A stretch of DNA of 51,780 bases from an uncultured Pseudomonadota bacterium (lineage in GTDB: Bacteria > Pseudomonadota > Alphaproteobacteria > RF32 > CAG-239): the NCBI GenBank assembly GCA_949295475.1, contig CASFLC010000131.1, forward strand, positions 1 through 51,780. Reading direction: 5' to 3'. Under the pieces are notes generated by a model that saw nothing but the letters and a program-made list of their open reading frames with translations, did not search any database and had not been told where the DNA came from. This document shows, piece after piece, positions 5,157-35,596 of the stretch (within the stretch, counting starts at the first letter, position 1; each line of letters starts with the position of its first letter). Both the position numbers and the translations under genes were made by a program.

Positions 5157-5215
5157 AGCACACCAACAAAGCCAATGACCGGGATTACCCTTTTTGTTCA
5201 ATTTTATTTCCAAGA

Positions 5216-5331
5216 GCGAGGACACAACGAACGCGGTTATTGTTGTTGTTCTTATTGTTGTTGTTCATATCGCCGTCGGACGGTCTCACAACCCACGCGT
5301 TGTTGTTGTTATTGTTCTCGGACGAAGACCA
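5216..5331 (-). repeat. DGR template repeat TR1 (RT-proximal)
   Basis: The coding strand would encode WSSSENNNNNNAWVVRPSDGDMNNNNKNNNNNRVRCVLA. It is collinear with VR 6637-6688, with 7 mismatches, all at TR adenines. Confidence 0.85.
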
Positions 5332-5483
5332 ACCATACAATCCTGACTGCCCGTTTTGGTCTTAACAACCGCGCTTTGCGGCTGTCGGCAGTCCTTTTGA
5401 AAATAAAACATGCTCGCTCCGTACGGCCGTAACCATACGAATTCCGGCAAAAATGCTGCTTTTGTTTAACTTTACTTCCAAGA

Positions 5484-5600
5484 GCGAGGACACAACGAAC
5501 GCGGTTACTGTTATTCTTATTGTTGTTGTTGTTGTTCATGTTGCCGTCGGACGGTCTGACGTTCCAGGCGTTATTGTTATTGTACTCGGACGAAGACCAG
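5484..5600 (-). repeat. DGR template repeat TR2 (avd-proximal)
   Basis: The coding strand would encode WSSSEYNNNNAWNVRPSDGNMNNNNNNKNNSNRVRCVLA. It is collinear with VR 6570-6643, with 13 mismatches, all at TR adenines. Confidence 0.85.
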
Positions 5601-5779
5601 ACGCACAATCCTGACTGCCCGTTTTGGTCTTAACAACCGCCTTCTGCGGCTGTCGGCAGTCCTTTTAAAAGTAAAATATGCTCGCTCCGTACGGCCGTAA
5701 CCGTACGAATTCCGGCAAAACTGTTTTTTGTCGCAGCGTTTCGGACGCTTCTCAAAAAAATAACGGCCGCAGGCGGTTT

Positions 5780-6121
5780 TTATTTGCCCCTGTTTTTCCA
5801 AGCGGTTATCTGCTTGCCGATGCTGTCGGTAATCAGCGCTATCTCGGCCATTTTTTTATACGATAATAATTTGAGGTCCAGGCAGACTCTTATTTGCAGC
5901 TTCAACAGCTCAAAATCATCCAGAAACGCGTCCAGAAATTCCCGTTTGTCCTGATTTTTGTTTGCCCGATACAAGTTGCGAAACAGCGAAAGCGTATCTC
6001 TGCGCATGTCCTGCCCCAAACTGAACTTGTACTCGCGGGAAAACGTATTGGTGACTTTGTAAATCTCCAACAGCAAACGATAACTGTCACGATAAACCGG
6101 TAATTCACTGTATATGGCCAC
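5780..6121 (-). CDS. avd: Avd-like accessory variability determinant (small basic helical protein)
   Basis: 113-aa ORF with a GTG start, in the canonical Avd position between target and TR. It is basic and predicted helical, in the size range of four-helix-bundle Avd / 23S-rRNA-IVS family proteins. Assigned mainly by position. Confidence 0.7.
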   Translation of the reverse strand: MAIYSELPVYRDSYRLLLEIYKVTNTFSREYKFSLGQDMRRDTLSLFRNLYRANKNQDKREFLDAFLDDFELLKLQIRVCLDLKLLSYKKMAEIALITDSIGKQITAWKNRGK

Positions 6122-6164
6122 GCTGCCCGTCCTTTGTTTTTTGGTTTATGGTAATCCCGGCACA

Positions 6165-6223
6165 ATTATACACTGTGCACCCGAAACGTTTATTCTTATA
6201 TAAAATGTTTGTTTAAGTTGCAA
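6165..6223 (-). promoter_or_regulatory. candidate promoters for avd-TR-RT
   Basis: On the minus strand: TTGCAA (6223-6218)-N17-TATAAG (6200-6195), and an extended -10 TGTATAAT (6172-6165) about 40 nt upstream of the avd GTG. Confidence 0.3.
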
Positions 6224-6246
6224 CCCTCTTTCTTAATTTATCCACA

Positions 6247-6404
6247 CCCACACGGTGGGAGCGAAAACTGGCTGCCTAAATAGCCTTTAAGTGGGCGCGC
6301 GATGCTTTTTCGGGACTGCCGTTTCTCCGTGCCTGATGTCTACCACCCAGCGGGTGGAGGCAAGATCTAAGCGGAGGCGGAGGGGATTCCACTTTTCTGC
6401 AGAT
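6247..6404. repeat. conserved element, copy A (unknown function)
   Basis: Hairpin 6247-6259, block 1 6266-6301 (aactggctgcctaaatagcctttaagtgggcgcgcg), hairpin 6343-6357 with loop agc, block 2 6367-6374 (ctaagcgg), block 3 6384-6404 (ggattccacttttctgcagat). Homologous to copy B at 8486-8602. Confidence 0.6.
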
Positions 6405-6468
6405 TTGATGCCGATTGACGGAATAATCTTTAAGCGGCTGCGGTTTGTTTTTTCAAAGCCGCAAAACG

Positions 6469-6496
6469 CCGCCTTCAAGCTAAAGCTTGAAGGCGG
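6469..6496. other. perfect 13-bp-arm inverted repeat
   Basis: ccgccttcaagct aa agcttgaaggcgg, lying between the target stop codon and element A. Confidence 0.6.
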
Positions 6497-6511
6497 AAGG
6501 CAGAAAAAAAT

Positions 6512-6543
6512 TTTACCTCTCGCGGCAAGCCGCGAGAGGTAAA
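6512..6543 (-). terminator. GC-rich hairpin 3' of VR (target-gene terminator and/or DGR target-recognition hairpin)
   Basis: acctctcgcgg caag ccgcgagaggt, extended by 3 A-T pairs. It lies 22 nt past the stop codon and is followed on the minus strand by aaaattttttt. Confidence 0.55.
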
Positions 6544-6562
6544 TAGTTGAAGGGATAAATAG

Positions 6563-7351
6563 TTAAAAAGCGAGGACACAACGAACGCGGTAACTGCCAA
6601 GCTTATTGTAGTTGCTGGCGTACATGCCGCCGCCGGACGGTCTCACAACCCACGCGTAGGTGTAGCTACTGAGCTCGGACGAAGACCAGTAATAAGCATT
6701 TTGAAGTTGCGTCTTCGACAATTTTTGAAGCCCTAAGTTAATAGCCCCATAACTGAAGTTCATCACATACAGCTCTCCGGCTGCCGGTAAATACCACCCG
6801 CTGCTGCCTTTACCGCTTGAGACAGGCTTATAAGTATTACAGTATTCTGCTGCCGGATAGCTATTGCTACTGCTGTAATTTACAATACATGAAGTATTCG
6901 TCGCACCTCTGAAATCTGTTTGTGCTTCTGCCGTACTACTATAATCTGTTAAACACGATAAATTCTCATAACTCGGAGTAGACCATCTCAAAGTCGAGCT
7001 ACTCTCCTCCAACGCCACCGCAAATCTCGTCGAACCGGCAACATAAGCCACTATACCGACCGGGGTCTTGCTCGGAATAACACTGTCCGATACCGTTCCA
7101 TCAGAATACAGAATCGATCCGGGTGCCGCTCCGGCCGCAGAATCTCCCGCCTCCACGCAGAAATATTTGCTGCTGTCAAACGGACAGACCAGACTTTCCA
7201 TGCCGTCGCAATCCGATGCCGATTTCTTATACCCCAATTCCGCACATCTGGTCGAACTCGTACAGTTCTGCGCCAGAACCGGCGTCATCGCCGTGCTGCA
7301 CAGCAGTAATGCCGCTATTACCGTTTTCATCGTCTTTATCCGCTTTCTCAT
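6563..7351 (-). CDS. DGR target: secreted DUF1566 / C-type-lectin-fold-like protein with C-terminal variable region
   Basis: 262 aa. Signal peptide (MKTVIAALLLCSTAMTPVLA), a Cys-rich N-terminal stalk, WYLPAAGEL and YYWSSSE...RVRCVLAF motifs typical of DUF1566-type DGR targets. The last ~40 codons are the VR. Confidence 0.85.
   Translation of the reverse strand: MRKRIKTMKTVIAALLLCSTAMTPVLAQNCTSSTRCAELGYKKSASDCDGMESLVCPFDSSKYFCVEAGDSAAGAAPGSILYSDGTVSDSVIPSKTPVGIVAYVAGSTRFAVALEESSSTLRWSTPSYENLSCLTDYSSTAEAQTDFRGATNTSCIVNYSSSNSYPAAEYCNTYKPVSSGKGSSGWYLPAAGELYVMNFSYGAINLGLQKLSKTQLQNAYYWSSSELSSYTYAWVVRPSGGGMYASNYNKLGSYRVRCVLAF
6570..6689 (-). repeat. DGR variable repeat (VR)
   Basis: 120 nt homologous to TR1/TR2. 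Encodes WSSSELSSYTYAWVVRPSGGGMYASNYNKLGSYRVRCVLA. The adenine-free 22-nt 3' end is identical to both TRs. Confidence 0.9.
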
Positions 7352-7396
7352 CGCTCTTCTCCCTTCTTCTTTAAGTTGACCGATTTCTGCCGCTCG

Positions 7397-8281
7397 TTAC
7401 AGGCCGCTCCAATAAGCTTCTTCATTAAAGCTGCCTTCAACGCATCCCGTCGCGCAATATTTGCCCGAACATTCCTCGTAACTGCACAGAGTGTTCTCCG
7501 GACAACTGTCCAGCGTGCACTCATACAGACATTTTTTGCAATTGTCATACAAAACCTTGCTGCCGCTCTGACAACTCTTCGACCCTATCTCCGCACCGTA
7601 CCGGCATTCACTGAACCCCTCGCACGGGTTTATCTCTATCTTGTACTTTGTGCCCGTGCAGCTCTCGCAACGTTCCGTCTCAATATAGCCTTCCGGGATT
7701 TCTCCGTAATCGTACCCTTCGCACAAATTGCAACAGGTCCCGTAGCTGCTGTCATATCCGCAGCGGCCGTCCAAACTCAGTTGCCACCCTTCCGAACAAC
7801 TCTTGACATAGCCCTCGCAGGCCTCTTCCACGTTTAACTCGCATCTGCTGTACTTGCCGCCGCAGCTGTTACCGCTCGTGTAATACGGCGGCTGACAATT
7901 GTCGTCATCGTACTGATAAACATCCGCACAGCGACAATTGGCATAACAGCGCAAATTCGGAAGCGGTCGTTGCAATGTTCCGCTCGCGCCGCTTTCGCAC
8001 GCAGAAACCATCCCATAATCTTCGCACCGGCGTTCGCCGTCCCCGCCGTCGGACGGGCCGGAAACATCCGGGGCGTTAATGTTGCTGTTGTAAATGTTTT
8101 GATAATCCGGAAGCCAGTATACTTTTGCCGTCCGATACGACTCCCCTTCGTTTGAAAATTCTCGGATATCCGGAGCCAGCCTCAGTGGTGTGTGTTGGTG
8201 TGTGCAATAGGCCGGATGACTATATAAACCGAACAACACTGTTGTAAATGCTGCCATGTACTTCGTGCTCATTCTGCTCAT
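7397..8281 (-). CDS. Cys-rich secreted protein with repeated CEGY/CEGF-type modules (unknown function)
   Basis: 294 aa with a hydrophobic N-terminus. 28 Cys in total, 27 of them in the last ~205 residues. Ends 46 nt upstream of the target gene on the same strand and has a good SD (agaagaagg). Confidence 0.65.
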   Translation of the reverse strand: MSRMSTKYMAAFTTVLFGLYSHPAYCTHQHTPLRLAPDIREFSNEGESYRTAKVYWLPDYQNIYNSNINAPDVSGPSDGGDGERRCEDYGMVSACESGASGTLQRPLPNLRCYANCRCADVYQYDDDNCQPPYYTSGNSCGGKYSRCELNVEEACEGYVKSCSEGWQLSLDGRCGYDSSYGTCCNLCEGYDYGEIPEGYIETERCESCTGTKYKIEINPCEGFSECRYGAEIGSKSCQSGSKVLYDNCKKCLYECTLDSCPENTLCSYEECSGKYCATGCVEGSFNEEAYWSGL

Positions 8282-8323
8282 CTTCGTCGTCCTTCTTCTG
8301 TTAGTCCGGATATCCTACCTTTT

Positions 8324-8352
8324 AATTTAACACGCCTTAAAACGTGTGTCAA
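8324..8352 (-). promoter_or_regulatory. candidate sigma-70 promoter for the Cys-rich gene / target operon
   Basis: Minus strand TTGACA (8352-8347)-N17-TAAATT (8329-8324). The spacer contains the palindrome acacg-N8-cgtgt. Confidence 0.35.
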
Positions 8353-8485
8353 TAATTAATTAACAGCGCTGGACGGAAAACTCATTTTATGCGGTTTCCC
8401 CCTCTCAGCGGCTTTAAAAACGCCCTTAAAACTTATGTTTTATCCGACTTTTCCCCTTTTTATTCCATTATCATAACATCTTATG

Positions 8486-8602
8486 CCAGGCAGCGCCTGG
8501 TGGCATAACTGGCCGCCTAAATAATCTTTAAGTAGGCGCGCGGTGGCAGCGCCACTGGCATAACCTAAGCGGCTGTTTTGAGAATTCCACTCTTCTGCAG
8601 AT
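8486..8602. repeat. conserved element, copy B (unknown function)
   Basis: Hairpin 8486-8500, block 1 8507-8542 (32/36 identical to copy A), hairpin 8543-8555 with loop agc, block 2 8565-8572 (8/8), block 3 8582-8602 (19/21). Confidence 0.6.
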
Positions 8603-8623
8603 ATGGCGTTGGTTGAGGCTGAT

Positions 8624-8663
8624 AAAAAAAATGCCGGGAAAACTTCTGCGTTTTCCCGGTTTT
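8624..8663. terminator. bidirectional intrinsic terminator after mrp
   Basis: ccgggaaaa cttctgcg ttttcccgg, flanked by an A-run (8624-8631) and a T-run (8660-8663). Confidence 0.7.
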
Positions 8664-8680
8664 GGATGTTTTATAATCTG

Positions 8681-9676
8681 CTAGGCCAGTTCGTCAATGA
8701 TTTTTGCGGCGATTTCTTTATAAGCTTTGGCAAACGGACTTTCCGGCTGCGCCCTGACTATCGGCGTGCCGCCGTCGGCGTTGGTCCGGATATCAATATG
8801 CAGCGGAATCTCTCCCAAAAACGGAACATTCAACTCCTGCGCCGTCTCCTTTGCGCCGGCATGACCGAAAATGTCCGCCCGGGTTCCGCACTTGGGACAC
8901 AGATAATAACTCATGTTTTCAATAATTCCGAGAATCGGCACCTCTACGCGTTTGAACATATTGACGCCCTTGACCGCATCTATCAGGGCGATATCCTGCG
9001 GCGTTGAAACAATTACCGCGCCGTCGATATTTACCCGCTGTGACAGCGTAATCTGAATGTCTCCGGTACCGGGCGGCATGTCTATCACCATGATATCAAT
9101 CTCCCCCCAGGAAACTTCCGTCAGAAGCTGCTCTATTGCGCCGCAAGCCTTGGCCCCGCGCCAGATTAACGGCACATTGCGGTCTATCAGCGTGCCGATT
9201 GACATGGATTTGATGTCCTGATACTCAAAAGGCTGAAACGTTTTGCCGTCATAAGAAACCGGCGCCACGCCTTCGTATCCCAGCATGGTGGGAACCGACG
9301 GGCCGTAAATATCCGCATCAAACAATGCAACCTTTTTGCCCAGTGCAGATAAGGCCATGGCCAAATTAACCGCCGTGGTCGATTTGCCGACTCCGCCTTT
9401 GCCGGACGCAACGGCAATAATTTTTTTGACGCCGGGTATTTCCCATTTGCCGGAATCAGGTTGAAGCGGCTGCGCCTGCTTGTCTGCCGTGTAAACAACG
9501 CTGACTTTTTTAACGCCGTCAACCCGGGACAGTTTTTGCGTCATTTCTTCGGCCTTAGCATCATCCTGAGCCGCGGCGTAAAGCGTGACAATGACCCGCC
9601 CTCCGAATTGTTTGACGCTTTCGACTGCCGAAGCCGGAAAATATGCGCCGACAATGTTTTGCAACTCTGTTTCCAT
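8681..9676 (-). CDS. apbC: Mrp/NBP35-family Fe-S cluster carrier ATPase (ApbC)
   Basis: 331 aa with P-loop ASGKGGVGKST, CPKC motif and an N-terminal DUF59-like region. Confidence 0.9.
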   Translation of the reverse strand: METELQNIVGAYFPASAVESVKQFGGRVIVTLYAAAQDDAKAEEMTQKLSRVDGVKKVSVVYTADKQAQPLQPDSGKWEIPGVKKIIAVASGKGGVGKSTTAVNLAMALSALGKKVALFDADIYGPSVPTMLGYEGVAPVSYDGKTFQPFEYQDIKSMSIGTLIDRNVPLIWRGAKACGAIEQLLTEVSWGEIDIMVIDMPPGTGDIQITLSQRVNIDGAVIVSTPQDIALIDAVKGVNMFKRVEVPILGIIENMSYYLCPKCGTRADIFGHAGAKETAQELNVPFLGEIPLHIDIRTNADGGTPIVRAQPESPFAKAYKEIAAKIIDELA

Positions 9677-16869: not shown

Positions 16870-17109
16870 TTACCGGTCCTCCAAAAAGATGACGACTCTT
16901 TTATCGTAAAATTTTGCCAAGATATAAAGGTGTTCCAGTTTTAGTTCGCGATTACCGATTTCTATCGCGTCTATCCACCAGCTGGGTATACCGGTTTTGA
17001 CGTGGACTTCTTCTATGCTCAGCCGGTTGGATATCCTCAAATCATGCAGCTGTTGCGACAAGCTGCGCTGACAGCGTTTTTGGTCTTTCATTGCTTTTTG
17101 GCATAACAT
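16870..17109 (-). CDS. small XRE-family helix-turn-helix regulator
   Basis: 79 aa with an HTH-like segment (LSIEEVHVKTGIPSWWIDAIEIG). SD aaaggag lies 8 nt upstream of the ATG. Confidence 0.55.
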   Translation of the reverse strand: MLCQKAMKDQKRCQRSLSQQLHDLRISNRLSIEEVHVKTGIPSWWIDAIEIGNRELKLEHLYILAKFYDKRVVIFLEDR

Positions 17110-17133
17110 GTTTGTAACTCCTTTGTTTGTTGA

Positions 17134-17168
17134 TAAAACAAAACCGCCTCGTTACAACAACGAAGCGG
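17134..17168 (-). terminator. intrinsic terminator upstream of the XRE ORF
   Basis: Minus strand ccgcttcgtt gttgt aacgaggcgg, then ttttgtttta. The 10-bp stem contains one U.G pair that would be a C.A mismatch on the plus strand. Confidence 0.6.
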
Positions 17169-17305
17169 GGAGTTCACAACTGTATAACCGAACAGTCCGG
17201 GTTCTTCGTCATGCAGGCATGCTTATTCCCCCGGCTCCCCATTTAAGGAGTTGTTCTTTTGGTTATTTGGAGCTGTGACACTCCGCTGCCCGCTCTCCGG
17301 ACAGC
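17169..17305 (-). ncRNA. candidate structured leader / small RNA (unknown class)
   Basis: Lies between a sigma-70-like promoter and the terminator above. Predicted elements: hairpin ctgtcc/gggcag, hairpin ggag/ctcc, and a three-way junction (P1 ggggag/ctcccc, P2 ccggg/cccgg, P3 actgt/acagt). Confidence 0.3.
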
Positions 17306-17311
17306 AAGGTT

Positions 17312-17339
17312 ATGATATAAAACCGGCAAAAATTTGCAA
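17312..17339 (-). promoter_or_regulatory. candidate sigma-70 promoter
   Basis: Minus strand TTGCAA (17339-17334)-N16-TATCAT (17317-17312), just downstream of the valS terminator. Confidence 0.4.
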
Positions 17340-17340
17340 C

Positions 17341-17369
17341 AAAAAAACTCCCGATGTTTACCGGGAGTT
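17341..17369 (-). terminator. valS intrinsic terminator
   Basis: actcccg / cgggagt stem with an 8-nt loop, followed on the minus strand by a T7 run (17347-17341). Confidence 0.75.
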
Positions 17370-33436: not shown

Positions 33437-33790
33437 TTATTTCGGCGCAGACTTGACAATCTCGGTCATGGTGATGCCAAGTTTGTCATCCACGACCACA
33501 ACTTCTCCGCGGGCAACCAGATTGTTATTGACATAAATGTCTATCGCCTCGCCGACTTTACGGTCAAGCTCTATAATCGCGCCTTTGTTCAACTTCATCA
33601 GCTGGCTGACTTTCATCTGAGTTTTGCCCAAAATGGCCGATACCTTAACCGGAATGTTATAGACCGCTTCCAAATCTGACGTTGAGGTCGGAATATCAAA
33701 ATCTTCCGGACCGCTGTCTTTACGCAGCACCGGTTCATCATTGAGAACGGAACTTTCATTGAGTTCGTCTAATTCTAAATTTTTATCCAT
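33437..33790 (-). CDS. fliN: flagellar motor switch protein FliN
   Basis: ORF trimmed to ATG 33790 (MDKNLELDE...), which has the SD gagagg. C-terminal SpoA/FliN domain (IPVKVSAILGKTQMKVSQLMKLNKGAIIELD). Confidence 0.88.
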   Translation of the reverse strand: MDKNLELDELNESSVLNDEPVLRKDSGPEDFDIPTSTSDLEAVYNIPVKVSAILGKTQMKVSQLMKLNKGAIIELDRKVGEAIDIYVNNNLVARGEVVVVDDKLGITMTEIVKSAPK

Positions 33791-34556
33791 TGTCCCTCTC
33801 TTTATTGGCAGATGATTTATCATCCAGCAAATCTTCTATTTTTTCAAGTGTTTTATGGCTGTTACGCTCAACGCCGCCGTTTGTCCACTCCACCAGGCAG
33901 TCGCTCATCCCCAGCGCAGCGTTTTTATGAATGGCTATTTTGCCTTCAAAATCGTTTTTGTCAGCCAGTTTGGAAATAATTTCCGCCGCTGCTCCCGCCA
34001 TTTCGGGATTAAGGCTGAAAGAAAGCGACGCTTCTTTGCCAAAGTCGGCAAAATTTTCTTCCAAAAACTTTTTGACTTCGTCCCGCGCATGCTTTTTCTC
34101 CAGCGACGGAAACAACTTTCCGACTGCGGCAGCTGCCAAGCTTAAAGCCTCACGCTCTGCCCGACGTTCCTGCTCCTTTTCTCCAGCAAACAACTCTTGC
34201 AGCCGCGTGTTCATTTCCTGCAAAAGGTCCAGCCGTTGTTTTTCAAAATCGCCGAATGCGGCGCGAAAGCCGTTTTCGTATCCGCGCTCTTCGGCCTGTT
34301 TTACCGCCGCGTCCAGTTCATCCTGACTGAACGTGGCAGCGGGCGGAGACAACGGTTCCGGCTCAGGGGCAGGCTCCGGCTCGGCAACAGTTTCAATCTT
34401 CTCTGCCTCTTCAACGGGAAGCTCTTCCGGAACTGGTTCAGGCGTTTGGGTATCCGCAACTTCCGTAACGGGGCCGGCATTGTCTGACGGAGAAGCTTTT
34501 TCATCCTCGCAGGCAATGACAAAATTATCAAACATAAATTTTTGATAGTGCGGCAC
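33783..34556 (-). CDS. fliH: FliH/FlbE-like flagellar export apparatus protein
   Basis: 257 aa with an acidic N-terminus and a FliH-like C-terminal half, located between fliG and fliN. Confidence 0.55.
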   Translation of the reverse strand: MPHYQKFMFDNFVIACEDEKASPSDNAGPVTEVADTQTPEPVPEELPVEEAEKIETVAEPEPAPEPEPLSPPAATFSQDELDAAVKQAEERGYENGFRAAFGDFEKQRLDLLQEMNTRLQELFAGEKEQERRAEREALSLAAAAVGKLFPSLEKKHARDEVKKFLEENFADFGKEASLSFSLNPEMAGAAAEIISKLADKNDFEGKIAIHKNAALGMSDCLVEWTNGGVERNSHKTLEKIEDLLDDKSSANKERDNG

Positions 34557-34573
34557 CTAACCTTTTCTCCATT

Positions 34574-35596
34574 TTAATAAACAAGCTCGTCGCTGTCTTT
34601 GCCCTCACTGACCACAATCTCACCGCTGTTGGCAAGATCTTTGGTGGTGCTGACGATATATTGCTGGGCTTCTTCCACGTCACGCAGGCGAACCGGCCCC
34701 ATGGCATCCATATCTTCTTTGATAATCTTTCCGGCGCGGGAAGACATGTTGTTGAAGAACAAATCCTTAATGGTATCGGAAGCGCCTTTCAGAGCAATTG
34801 CCAATTTGTCCTTATCAACATTGCGCAGCAAGACCTGAATACCCTGAGAATCGACACGGGTCAAATCCTCAAACGTGAACATCAAAGACTTGACGCGCTC
34901 GGCGCTTTCGCGGTTGCGTTCTTCCAGGGCCTCCATGAAACGGGTTTCGGTATTGCGGTCCAAAGAGTTGAAAATATCCGCAATCAATTCGTGCGAATCG
35001 CGTCTGGTCGACTTGGACAGATTGCTCATAAATTCTTTGCGCAAGGTCTTTTCCAAACCGTCCAAAACCTCCTTCTGAACGGAATCCATCCGCAACATGC
35101 GCATAACGATTTCCATGGCAAAGTTTTCCGGAAACAGGGCAATGACTTTTGCTGCATGTTCCGCCTTAATCTTGGAAAGGATAACCGCAATCGTCTGTGG
35201 ATATTCGTTTTTGAGATAATTGGCCAACACATGCTCATTAACATTACCGAGTTTGTCCCACATGGTACGGCCGGCCGGGCCGCGGATTTCTTCCATAATA
35301 ATGGACACGCGGTCTTTGTCCAACGCTTTGGCCAGCAGGCGCTCGGTGCTTTCGTAGGTCCCGATTAACGCGCCGGTGTTGGAAATCTTGTCATTAAATT
35401 CATGCAGAAGCTGTTCAACCACGTTGGAATTAATTTTGCCAAGACTGGCCATAATTACCGACAGCTCTTTGATTTCTTCGTCATCCATCAGCGAAAAAAG
35501 GCTGGCCGACCGCTCCTCATCCAGCGAAAGCATCAGAATGGCAGCCTTCTGCGGACCGGATAAAACATTATAATCATCAATAACGTTCTGCTTCAT
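34574..35596 (-). CDS. fliG: flagellar motor switch protein FliG
   Basis: 340 aa with typical FliG N/M/C domains ([42 protein letters not shown]). Confidence 0.95.

Follow-up and report, generated by a model that had tools for sequence, protein, structure and literature searches.

The two direct repeats, copies A and B, that flank a cassette of two secreted-protein genes in contig CASFLC010000131.1 (GenBank assembly GCA_949295475.1; the whole analysed stretch of 51,780 nt is called the window) are probably members of a new family of intergenic mosaic repeats, non-coding and lineage-restricted, that falls in one class with the BIME, BOX, NIME and RIME elements. We put the probability of this reading at roughly 0.65. 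The family expanded in the common ancestor of the window's species and its sister species; most of the insertion sites checked are common to both, and the content of the sites turns over fast, with whole modules being gained, lost or replaced. The original prediction, made from the window alone, had seen in A and B an element that brackets a gene for a cysteine-rich (Cys-rich) secreted protein and a target gene of a diversity-generating retroelement (DGR), and had suggested that it could be a plus-strand small RNA (sRNA), an upstream regulatory module or a recombination boundary. This interpretation is now partly supported.

The window is contig C131 of a metagenome-assembled genome (MAG; G000) of 1.47 Mb in 148 contigs, 94% complete and with 47% G+C. 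The host is an uncultured gut alphaproteobacterium, whose nearest named relatives are 'Azospirillum sp. 51_20'-type MAGs and Candidatus Scatocola. The sister species, in the same genus, is represented by the MAG E27__bin196 (G022), with an alanyl-tRNA synthetase (AlaRS) 99% identical to that of G000. In minus-strand order, the locus consists of mrp, a terminator, copy B, the promoter and gene of the Cys-rich protein, the DGR target, two hairpins, copy A, avd, the template repeats (TRs) and the reverse transcriptase (RT).

Each element is a polar string of modules in a fixed order: a hairpin, an optional M1 (TGGCTGCCTAAATAATCTTTAAGTGGGCGCGCG, which may bear a 40-nt extension, M1x), one to four hairpin-M2 units (M2 block ..TAAGCGGCTG), an M3 unit (GAATTCCACTTTTCTG), which sometimes follows every hairpin-M2 unit, and a tail with a sense-oriented intrinsic terminator. 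The 5' end is marked by a hairpin and the 3' end by M3 with its variable tail. In the window, with the limits of copy A defined against 10 other strain contigs, the modules are as follows.

6247..6412, plus strand: copy A of the mosaic repeat
6247-6259: first hairpin of copy A, CCCAC-ACG-GTGGG, then linker AGCGAA
6266-6301: M1 of copy A, followed by M1x at 6302-6341
6343-6357: second hairpin of copy A, CCACCC-AGC-GGGTGG
6359-6377: degenerate M2 of copy A (ggcaagatctaagcggagg), followed by M3 at 6382-6399
6413..6466, plus strand: conserved tail after copy A (gattgacggaataatctttaagcggctgcggtttgttttttcaaagccgc), common to contig C77 and all strain alleles
8486..8597, plus strand: copy B of the mosaic repeat
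8486-8500: first hairpin of copy B, CCAGGC-AGC-GCCTGG, then GGCATAAC linker
8507-8542: M1 of copy B
8543-8555: second hairpin of copy B, GTGGC-AGC-GCCAC
8557-8575: M2 of copy B, followed by M3 at 8580-8597
8598..8663, no strand assigned: tail of copy B and the mrp terminator hairpin, the latter on the minus strand at 8659-8634

As a description of two related copies, the earlier account was accurate in nearly every detail. The first conserved block (6266-6301 versus 8507-8542) is identical at 32 of 36 positions, with a pairwise BLAST E value of 1e-10 over a 39-nt stretch, the second (ctaagcgg) at 8/8 and the third at 19/21. The copies lie in direct orientation at a spacing of 2241 nt (block 1) or 2198 nt (block 3), and all four hairpins were found as they had been written. 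The insert between blocks 1 and 2 measures 22 nt in B, as stated, and 66 nt in A, where 65 had been given. A third, M1-like partial core (aataatctttaag) is present at 6422-6434, within the tail of A, and the guessed -35/-10 of the Cys-rich gene lies on the minus strand at 8352-8324. The "good terminator" assigned to the plus strand behind B is a hairpin (8634-8659) that scores as a terminator on the minus strand, for mrp, and is followed by only 4 T on the plus strand.

When A and B were compared with the whole assembly by BLASTN, about 30 contigs were matched, often a few hundred bases from a contig end. Fuzzy matching gave 9 copies of M1 (AACTGGCTGCCTAAATAATCTTTAAGTGGGCGCGCG) in the genome and 0 in a shuffled genome, 34 versus 1 for M2 (GGCATAACCTAAGCGGCTG) and 30 versus 2 for M3 (GAGAATTCCACTTTTCTG). 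These cluster into 31 loci of more than one module each, which are spread over 25 contigs, amount to 3.4 kb and are all intergenic. Thirteen of the 31 are within 500 nt of a contig end, against an expectation of 10%; the repeat therefore breaks assembly, and the family explains many of the contig breaks in these MAGs. The existence of the pair is confirmed, and the idea that it specifically brackets the secreted-protein genes of this locus is not. The outcome is largely what the original prediction had named as its refutation, a genome-wide repeat without a link to the locus, since ten of the 31 loci stand behind housekeeping genes unrelated to the DGR; a strong link to the cassettes survives.

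The two genomes have 140 perfect hairpins in 53 loci, all with GC stems of 5-7 bp. The loop is AGC in 91 of them, ACG in 28 and the reverse-complement GCT in one, and therefore the hairpins share the polarity of the other modules. AGC hairpins are followed by the linker N-GGCAWWAY and ACG hairpins by AGCG; the 5' flank of the hairpins reads ..GCGG/CTG. Beneath these fixed loops there are at least 11 distinct stems, for example GTGGC, CAGGC, CGGCG, CACGC, GTGCG, CCCAC, CGCCC and CCCGG. A conserved loop on a variable stem is an unusual design for an intergenic repeat.

Pairing was tested without selecting for it, by anchoring the hairpins on the loop motif beside an M1 or M2 block; a loop-anchored alignment was chosen because the loop falls into two registers, depending on whether the stem has 5 or 6 bp, and a gap-free MAFFT alignment cannot accommodate both. 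Five perfect inner pairs were found in 78 of the 90 hairpins so anchored, and redistributing the 3' arms among the units left a mean of 14. For the 30 distinct hairpin sequences, 88.7% of cells pair compared with 47% after shuffling, and each of the five pairs varies on both sides. Covariation scored 0.89, against 0.22 for shuffled sequences; none of 500 shuffles reached the observed value, and slid registers gave at most 0.33. What had been said of A and B, that structure is conserved while sequence drifts, accordingly holds for the family as a whole.

The host range is narrow. Among 41 relatives, many matches were found only in the window's genome and its sister; one other relative (G007) has a diverged tandem form in which the stem is different (GTCGC-AGC-GCGAC) and the loop and M2 are unchanged. 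In a set of 251 genomes from the host's family, G000 has 32 occurrences of the M2 motif, G022 has 59 and each of the 249 others has 0-1, which equals the reversed-pattern control. Among 185,579 species, each represented by one genome, a 20-mer of M1 is multi-copy only in E27__bin196; this collection may leave out the window's own genome. Two scans of JGI metagenomes, one with the avd-side flank and one with the M1 core, gave no matches. The exact Mrp protein was found on one further contig, which ends inside copy B, and a look-up of the exact Cys-rich protein found no record. The elements would constitute a previously undescribed mosaic repeat family in uncultured gut RF32-like Alphaproteobacteria.

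To follow the sites between species, 16 loci of the window's genome were mapped by their flanks onto the sister genome. Wherever both flanks could be traced, an element was found at the orthologous place, directly for at least 9 loci and by inference from spacing for several more. The content of these sites is another matter. The spacer between avd and the DGR target has, in the sister genome, a different first hairpin, no M1x and one extra hairpin-M2 unit, and module content differs likewise at the mrp and era sites. An identical Avd is encoded by ten more assemblies, obtained from other samples. The 11 sequences with this protein display six module make-ups in the avd-target spacer, the shortest with one hairpin-M2-M3 unit (90 nt) and the longest with four (242 nt); the flanks on either side have 92-100% identity. 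Taken together, shared sites and differing content lead to the conclusion that the family is old in position and young in content. As a practical matter, the avd-target element is a very variable strain marker, with six alleles under an identical Avd.

Cassettes also differ in their surroundings. In the sister genome, the neighbour of the DGR-linked Cys-rich gene is the neighbour of another cassette (on contig C57) in the window's genome, and mrp faces a different cassette in the two species. Synteny breaks off inside the Cys-rich gene and at the element-promoter junction (G022 contig C14, ~33700-35190, versus 7540-8700 of the window). With cassette neighbours swapped at such breaks, the cassettes appear to have been reshuffled by recombination, and the elements mark the junctions where the neighbourhoods of DGR-target cassettes differ between close relatives.

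Two kinds of genomic placement stand out. First, ten copies in the window's genome start 1-25 nt past the stop codon of a co-oriented gene, the genes including those for ThrRS (thrS), RpoD, RecG, Pgk, Era, a DEAD-box-like protein and a PpiD-like protein. For example, era in element-free congeners is followed by a ~70-nt spacer with a plain terminator and then by the sigma-54-type promoter that in the sister genome follows the element. It can therefore be concluded that element and tail replace the native 3' region, which was not simply interrupted. Second, many copies adjoin, head to head, a promoter module that drives the Cys-rich/target cassettes and that reads, toward the gene, TTTCGTCCAG, an AT-rich stretch, TTGACA, 17 nt and a TATAGT-like hexamer. 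We counted 22 ends of this module (..CTGGACGAAA) in G000, 16 of which directly adjoin an element hairpin, that is, the 5' end of the element; one, in the window, has the element after 107 nt, and five are followed by unrelated DNA. Three more element-promoter junctions carry a variant end motif.

Recurrence of the element beside other Cys-rich genes and other DGR targets had been proposed as a check, and the two halves of it came out differently. An element is found at most 450 nt upstream of 9 of the 14 Cys-rich paralog starts (10 if a degenerate copy on contig C137 is counted), and at most 450 nt downstream of only 3 of the 33 target paralog ends, namely those in the window and on C77 and C74. 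Thus bracketing is peculiar to the window locus and the upstream position is general. The suggestion of an upstream module or recombination boundary may accordingly hold for the cassette family as a whole, and not for this DGR locus specifically.

How such a family might behave can be outlined from these observations. We infer that modules would turn over through slippage from one repeated linker to another, together with ectopic recombination or gene conversion within the set of 30-60 copies. Some hairpins are made of arms of different types, such as an H4 arm joined to an H3 arm at the common GAGCC loop with loss of pairing. Behind about ten housekeeping genes, the hairpin string would form a 3' untranslated region (3' UTR) ahead of the terminator. 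At its other sites it may occupy the space from an upstream terminator to the promoter of a Cys-rich/DGR-target cassette, where it would be a spacer or insulator and might serve as a homology patch for cassette reshuffling. It would have no part in DGR template-to-target mutagenesis. In earlier work, REPs of E. coli near stop codons or in 3' UTRs are reported to affect the expression of the upstream gene, and by analogy the elements behind stop codons may do the same. Such effects of E. coli REPs near stop codons and in 3' UTRs are also reported in 10.64898/2026.03.23.713779.

The element shares its mosaic build, extragenic place, strain variability and narrow host range with BIME, BOX, NIME and RIME repeats, and it fails the defining features of REPs (tag, RAYT, alternation) and of MITEs (terminal inverted repeats). 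The BIMEs and REPs of E. coli and other Proteobacteria are likewise short GC-rich extragenic hairpins combined with fixed linker motifs as mosaics (PMC3333891, PMC2817692, PMC3733652), placed in 3' UTRs and between genes, often just past stop codons, and they are lineage-specific and vary in unit number between strains. However, BIME units alternate in orientation, whereas here all hairpins have the same polarity; a REP carries a GTAG or CGTC tag at one end of its palindrome (PMC3733652) and has a cognate RAYT/Y1 transposase, whereas the units here show no such tag and G000 has no such transposase; a REP is built on one imperfect consensus palindrome rather than on many perfect stem alleles under a fixed AGC/ACG triloop; and BIMEs and REPs occupy hundreds of loci, compared with about 30-60 here.

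The BOX elements of Streptococcus pneumoniae and S. suis (boxA-boxB(n)-boxC) are also composite, with a fixed polar order and a variable number of internal units, a strain-variable size, a location near particular gene classes that was once taken as a hint of regulation, and an apparently dormant state with sites common to related genomes (PMC3049150). Their hosts are Firmicutes rather than a gut alphaproteobacterium, so no relation in sequence is expected; they have IS-like terminal inverted repeats, of which we saw none, and the modules described here are much shorter (13-40 nt) and far more variable in content at a single site. NIMEs are concentrated beside variable surface-protein genes and have been proposed to favour recombination there. 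This parallels the position of our element beside Cys-rich/DGR-target cassettes and at synteny breaks. In build, too, the Neisserial intergenic mosaic elements (named in PMC3049150) are similar, being arrays of short units bounded by small inverted repeats. The sequences are unrelated, NIME units have 50-150 bp between 20-bp dRS3 repeats, and there is no evidence here of uptake-mediated recombination or of phage integration at the repeats. RIMEs are units of about 100-180 bp with large palindromes, unlike the strings of 13-15-nt triloop hairpins seen here. Compared by description only, the Rhizobium-specific RIMEs (Osteras et al. 1995, cited in PMC2873474) are like our element in being an alphaproteobacterial, genus-restricted palindromic mosaic of modest copy number.

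Several points weigh against the mosaic-repeat reading. The MAG is fragmented, so the copies counted are a minimum. The comparison of the 16 loci between the two genomes turned up no empty site. The 3' UTR role, the insulation and the effects on expression are what we infer from sequence and position. The association with cassette promoters (16/22 ends) is far above chance, and the element could have a regulatory role; alternatively, this association could reflect common descent of a duplicated promoter-plus-element junction. Finally, at least 11 different stems pair almost perfectly below a fixed polar loop, as if selection had kept a hairpin that is recognised, which a purely neutral repeat would not predict.

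The promoter association leads to the alternative that survives best, although we consider it improbable: the element could be an upstream regulatory array for the cassettes, with the double-stranded palindromes and M2/M3 as operators and with the number and type of modules setting expression in a strain-variable or phase-like manner. The binder might be one of the 12 or more small helix-turn-helix (HTH)-like paralogs that are often encoded next door. The 16 junctions lie at the identical base, 9-10 of the 14 Cys-rich starts have an upstream element, contigs C121 and C39 have a small HTH-like gene directly upstream of the element-promoter junction, and module content varies between strains at a fixed site, all as an operator array would suggest. 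However, modules are also found behind the stop codons of thrS, pgk, era, rpoD and recG, without an adjacent cassette promoter, and 5 of the 22 cassette promoters have no element. A polar, conserved loop on freely varying stems is the reverse of what a sequence-specific operator in double-stranded DNA predicts, the HTH match is below the Pfam cut-off, and paralogous cassettes may simply have inherited the junction. We also considered element pairs as the inverted ends of a unit containing the small HTH gene, an arrangement seen on C121 and C39; it was rejected, only ~5 of the 13 such genes having an upstream element.

The chances are lower still that the element is a non-autonomous mobile element of the MITE or REPIN type that is still transposed by an enzyme encoded elsewhere. 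Its high copy number is confined to two sister species, its copies are intergenic and break the assembly, and by comparison with the element-free congeners there was an insertion or replacement after era. Nevertheless, terminal inverted repeats, which define MITEs, do not pair the ends of either A or B, and the unit listings hold no GTAG or CGTC tag. A RAYT/Y1 transposase (PF01797) had no match in G000, at 94% completeness, with a search that detected the positive-control genomes; IS110 (PF01548) and TnpB (PF07282) are lacking in both G000 and G022, where the only candidates are Xer-like tyrosine recombinases, one of them detected in G000. In addition, both species have an element at no fewer than 9 of the 16 tested loci and at the A, B and era sites, with no empty site seen, and the copies differ in module content rather than being near-identical.

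A comparably small chance attaches to an active version of the hairpin's role, in which the AGC/ACG triloop on its covarying stems would be recognised by a dedicated protein, as single-stranded DNA or RNA, and module replacement would be active and targeted, reshuffling the promoters and neighbours of about 20-30 cassettes. If true, targeted module replacement would add recombination to DGR mutagenesis as a second source of surface-protein variation.

It is very doubtful that the element functions as a plus-strand sRNA or a structured cis-acting RNA, with a role in processing or protein binding or as terminator-like modules. Sense transcription has to run through the copies adjacent to stop codons, each copy has a sense-oriented terminator behind it (for T1, pairing through G.U works on the sense strand only), and the loops are strictly polar. 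However, the window had no Rfam match at gathering score and its 6100-8750 segment none at E <= 10, and the global fold of A or B was, on either strand, not better than that of shuffled sequences (z = -0.55, +0.15, -0.06 and -1.54). One-mismatch hairpins have A.C in 5 cases versus G.U in 3, a small sample in which neither strand is favoured. The hairpins with mismatched arm types, which have lost their pairing, also speak against a reading at the RNA level. A and B have no sense promoter and are antisense to both neighbouring genes, and the module content is too unstable for a defined RNA. The TTTAC variant of a mini-hairpin in M3 (GTGGA..TCCAC) at first resembled G.U conservation; the candidate was dropped, pairing being broken in many copies, so that this structure is not maintained either. 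The sRNA suggestion thus found no backing in Rfam, in folding or in a G.U bias.

The least credible alternative is that A and B are a DGR accessory or cassette-boundary site, either a homing-enhancing hairpin or an attC-like site delimiting a mobile target cassette: A and B do flank the cassette in direct orientation, C77 repeats the arrangement of copy A, and cassette neighbours have been swapped between the sister genomes at element-promoter junctions, but a downstream element exists at only 3/33 targets, elements are also found at housekeeping genes, and copy A is more than 150 nt from the variable repeat (VR), past two other hairpins. Those two hairpins (6469-6496 and 6512-6543) are closer to the VR, and copy A is therefore not the DGR hairpin proximal to it. 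A DGR target-recognition element, which comprises the initiation of mutagenic homing (IMH) sequence and a downstream hairpin or cruciform immediately 3' of the VR, was tried as a candidate and failed, the element being absent downstream of 30 of the 33 targets. The attC/integron version was rejected because the genome has no IntI and the hairpins are of the wrong type: attC is one long imperfect hairpin with R/L boxes and an integrase of its own, in contrast to several small perfect hairpins and, in G000, a single Xer-like recombinase. The "bracketing" repeats are not a DGR component and should not be annotated as such in G000 or G022.

The other features of the locus are the following.

9676-8681, minus strand: mrp-like ATPase gene, the first in minus-strand order
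8324..8378, minus strand: promoter module P of the Cys-rich gene, with TTGACA at 8352-8347, a 17-nt spacer and a -10 ending at 8324
8281-7397, minus strand: Cys-rich secreted protein gene, between copy B and the DGR target
7351-6563, minus strand: Lcl_C-domain DGR target, VR at about 6566-6690
6563..8281, minus strand: enclosed cassette (Cys-rich gene and DGR target)
6469..6543, minus strand: two hairpins (6469-6496 and 6512-6543) directly downstream of the target gene, between VR and copy A
6122..6246, minus strand: avd upstream region, 95-100% identical across all strain contigs
6121-5780, minus strand: avd, after copy A in minus-strand order
between avd and the RT: two tandem template repeats with a 268-nt period
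5225-3891, minus strand: reverse transcriptase, the last in minus-strand order

The upstream end motif of promoter P is CTGGACGGAA on the plus strand (8369-8378). In the window 107 nt separate this end from copy B, and most paralogous cassettes adjoin the element directly. The avd upstream region meets the 5' end of copy A at a junction that reads ..atccaca on the avd side and ccc on the side of the copy. The hairpin at 6512-6543 scores as the intrinsic terminator of the target gene, on the minus strand.

By tblastn, G000 encodes ~33-38 Lcl_C-domain paralogs of the DGR target, many with VR-like 3' ends that match both TRs, and ~22 paralogs of the Cys-rich protein; examples of such loci are C107 3262-4950 and C121 26759-28626, with others on C65, C77, C78, C101 and C148. 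One RT was seen, in the window, and the genome was not searched for others; if it is the sole RT, this would be a very large multi-target DGR for a 1.5-Mb genome. The tandem TR units between avd and the RT (268-nt period; 5212-5723 in the window) number from one to three among strains with an identical Avd, and the avd-to-RT distance is accordingly ~355, 624 or 887 nt.

A second multi-copy unit, with at least 12 copies, is often found beside the mosaic repeat. It is present in the window at 16870-17365 on the minus strand, and also on contigs C37, C121, C117, C39, C146, C147, C74, C143, C19, C22 and C81 of the same genome. The unit is made up of a sigma-70-like promoter, a conserved leader of ~190 nt, a terminator-like hairpin and an open reading frame of 79-98 aa with a weak, sub-threshold HTH_3 match. 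The unit has no Rfam match even at E <= 10, and its leader shows apparent compensatory changes between copies; it is a candidate for a new family of cis-regulatory leaders or attenuators.

Two minor observations concern the cassette promoters. Cassettes of the 'Pb' type (C78 3882-4086, C11 11437-11671 and others) have a conserved 5' leader of ~200 nt, from the promoter to the start of the Cys-rich gene, that begins cataatctatagtgtgttggtgaat... On contig C141 (8116-8150), two cassette promoter modules stand back to back, separated by a 15-nt imperfect palindrome (ccgcacggtgtctgg) that may be a remnant of the element.

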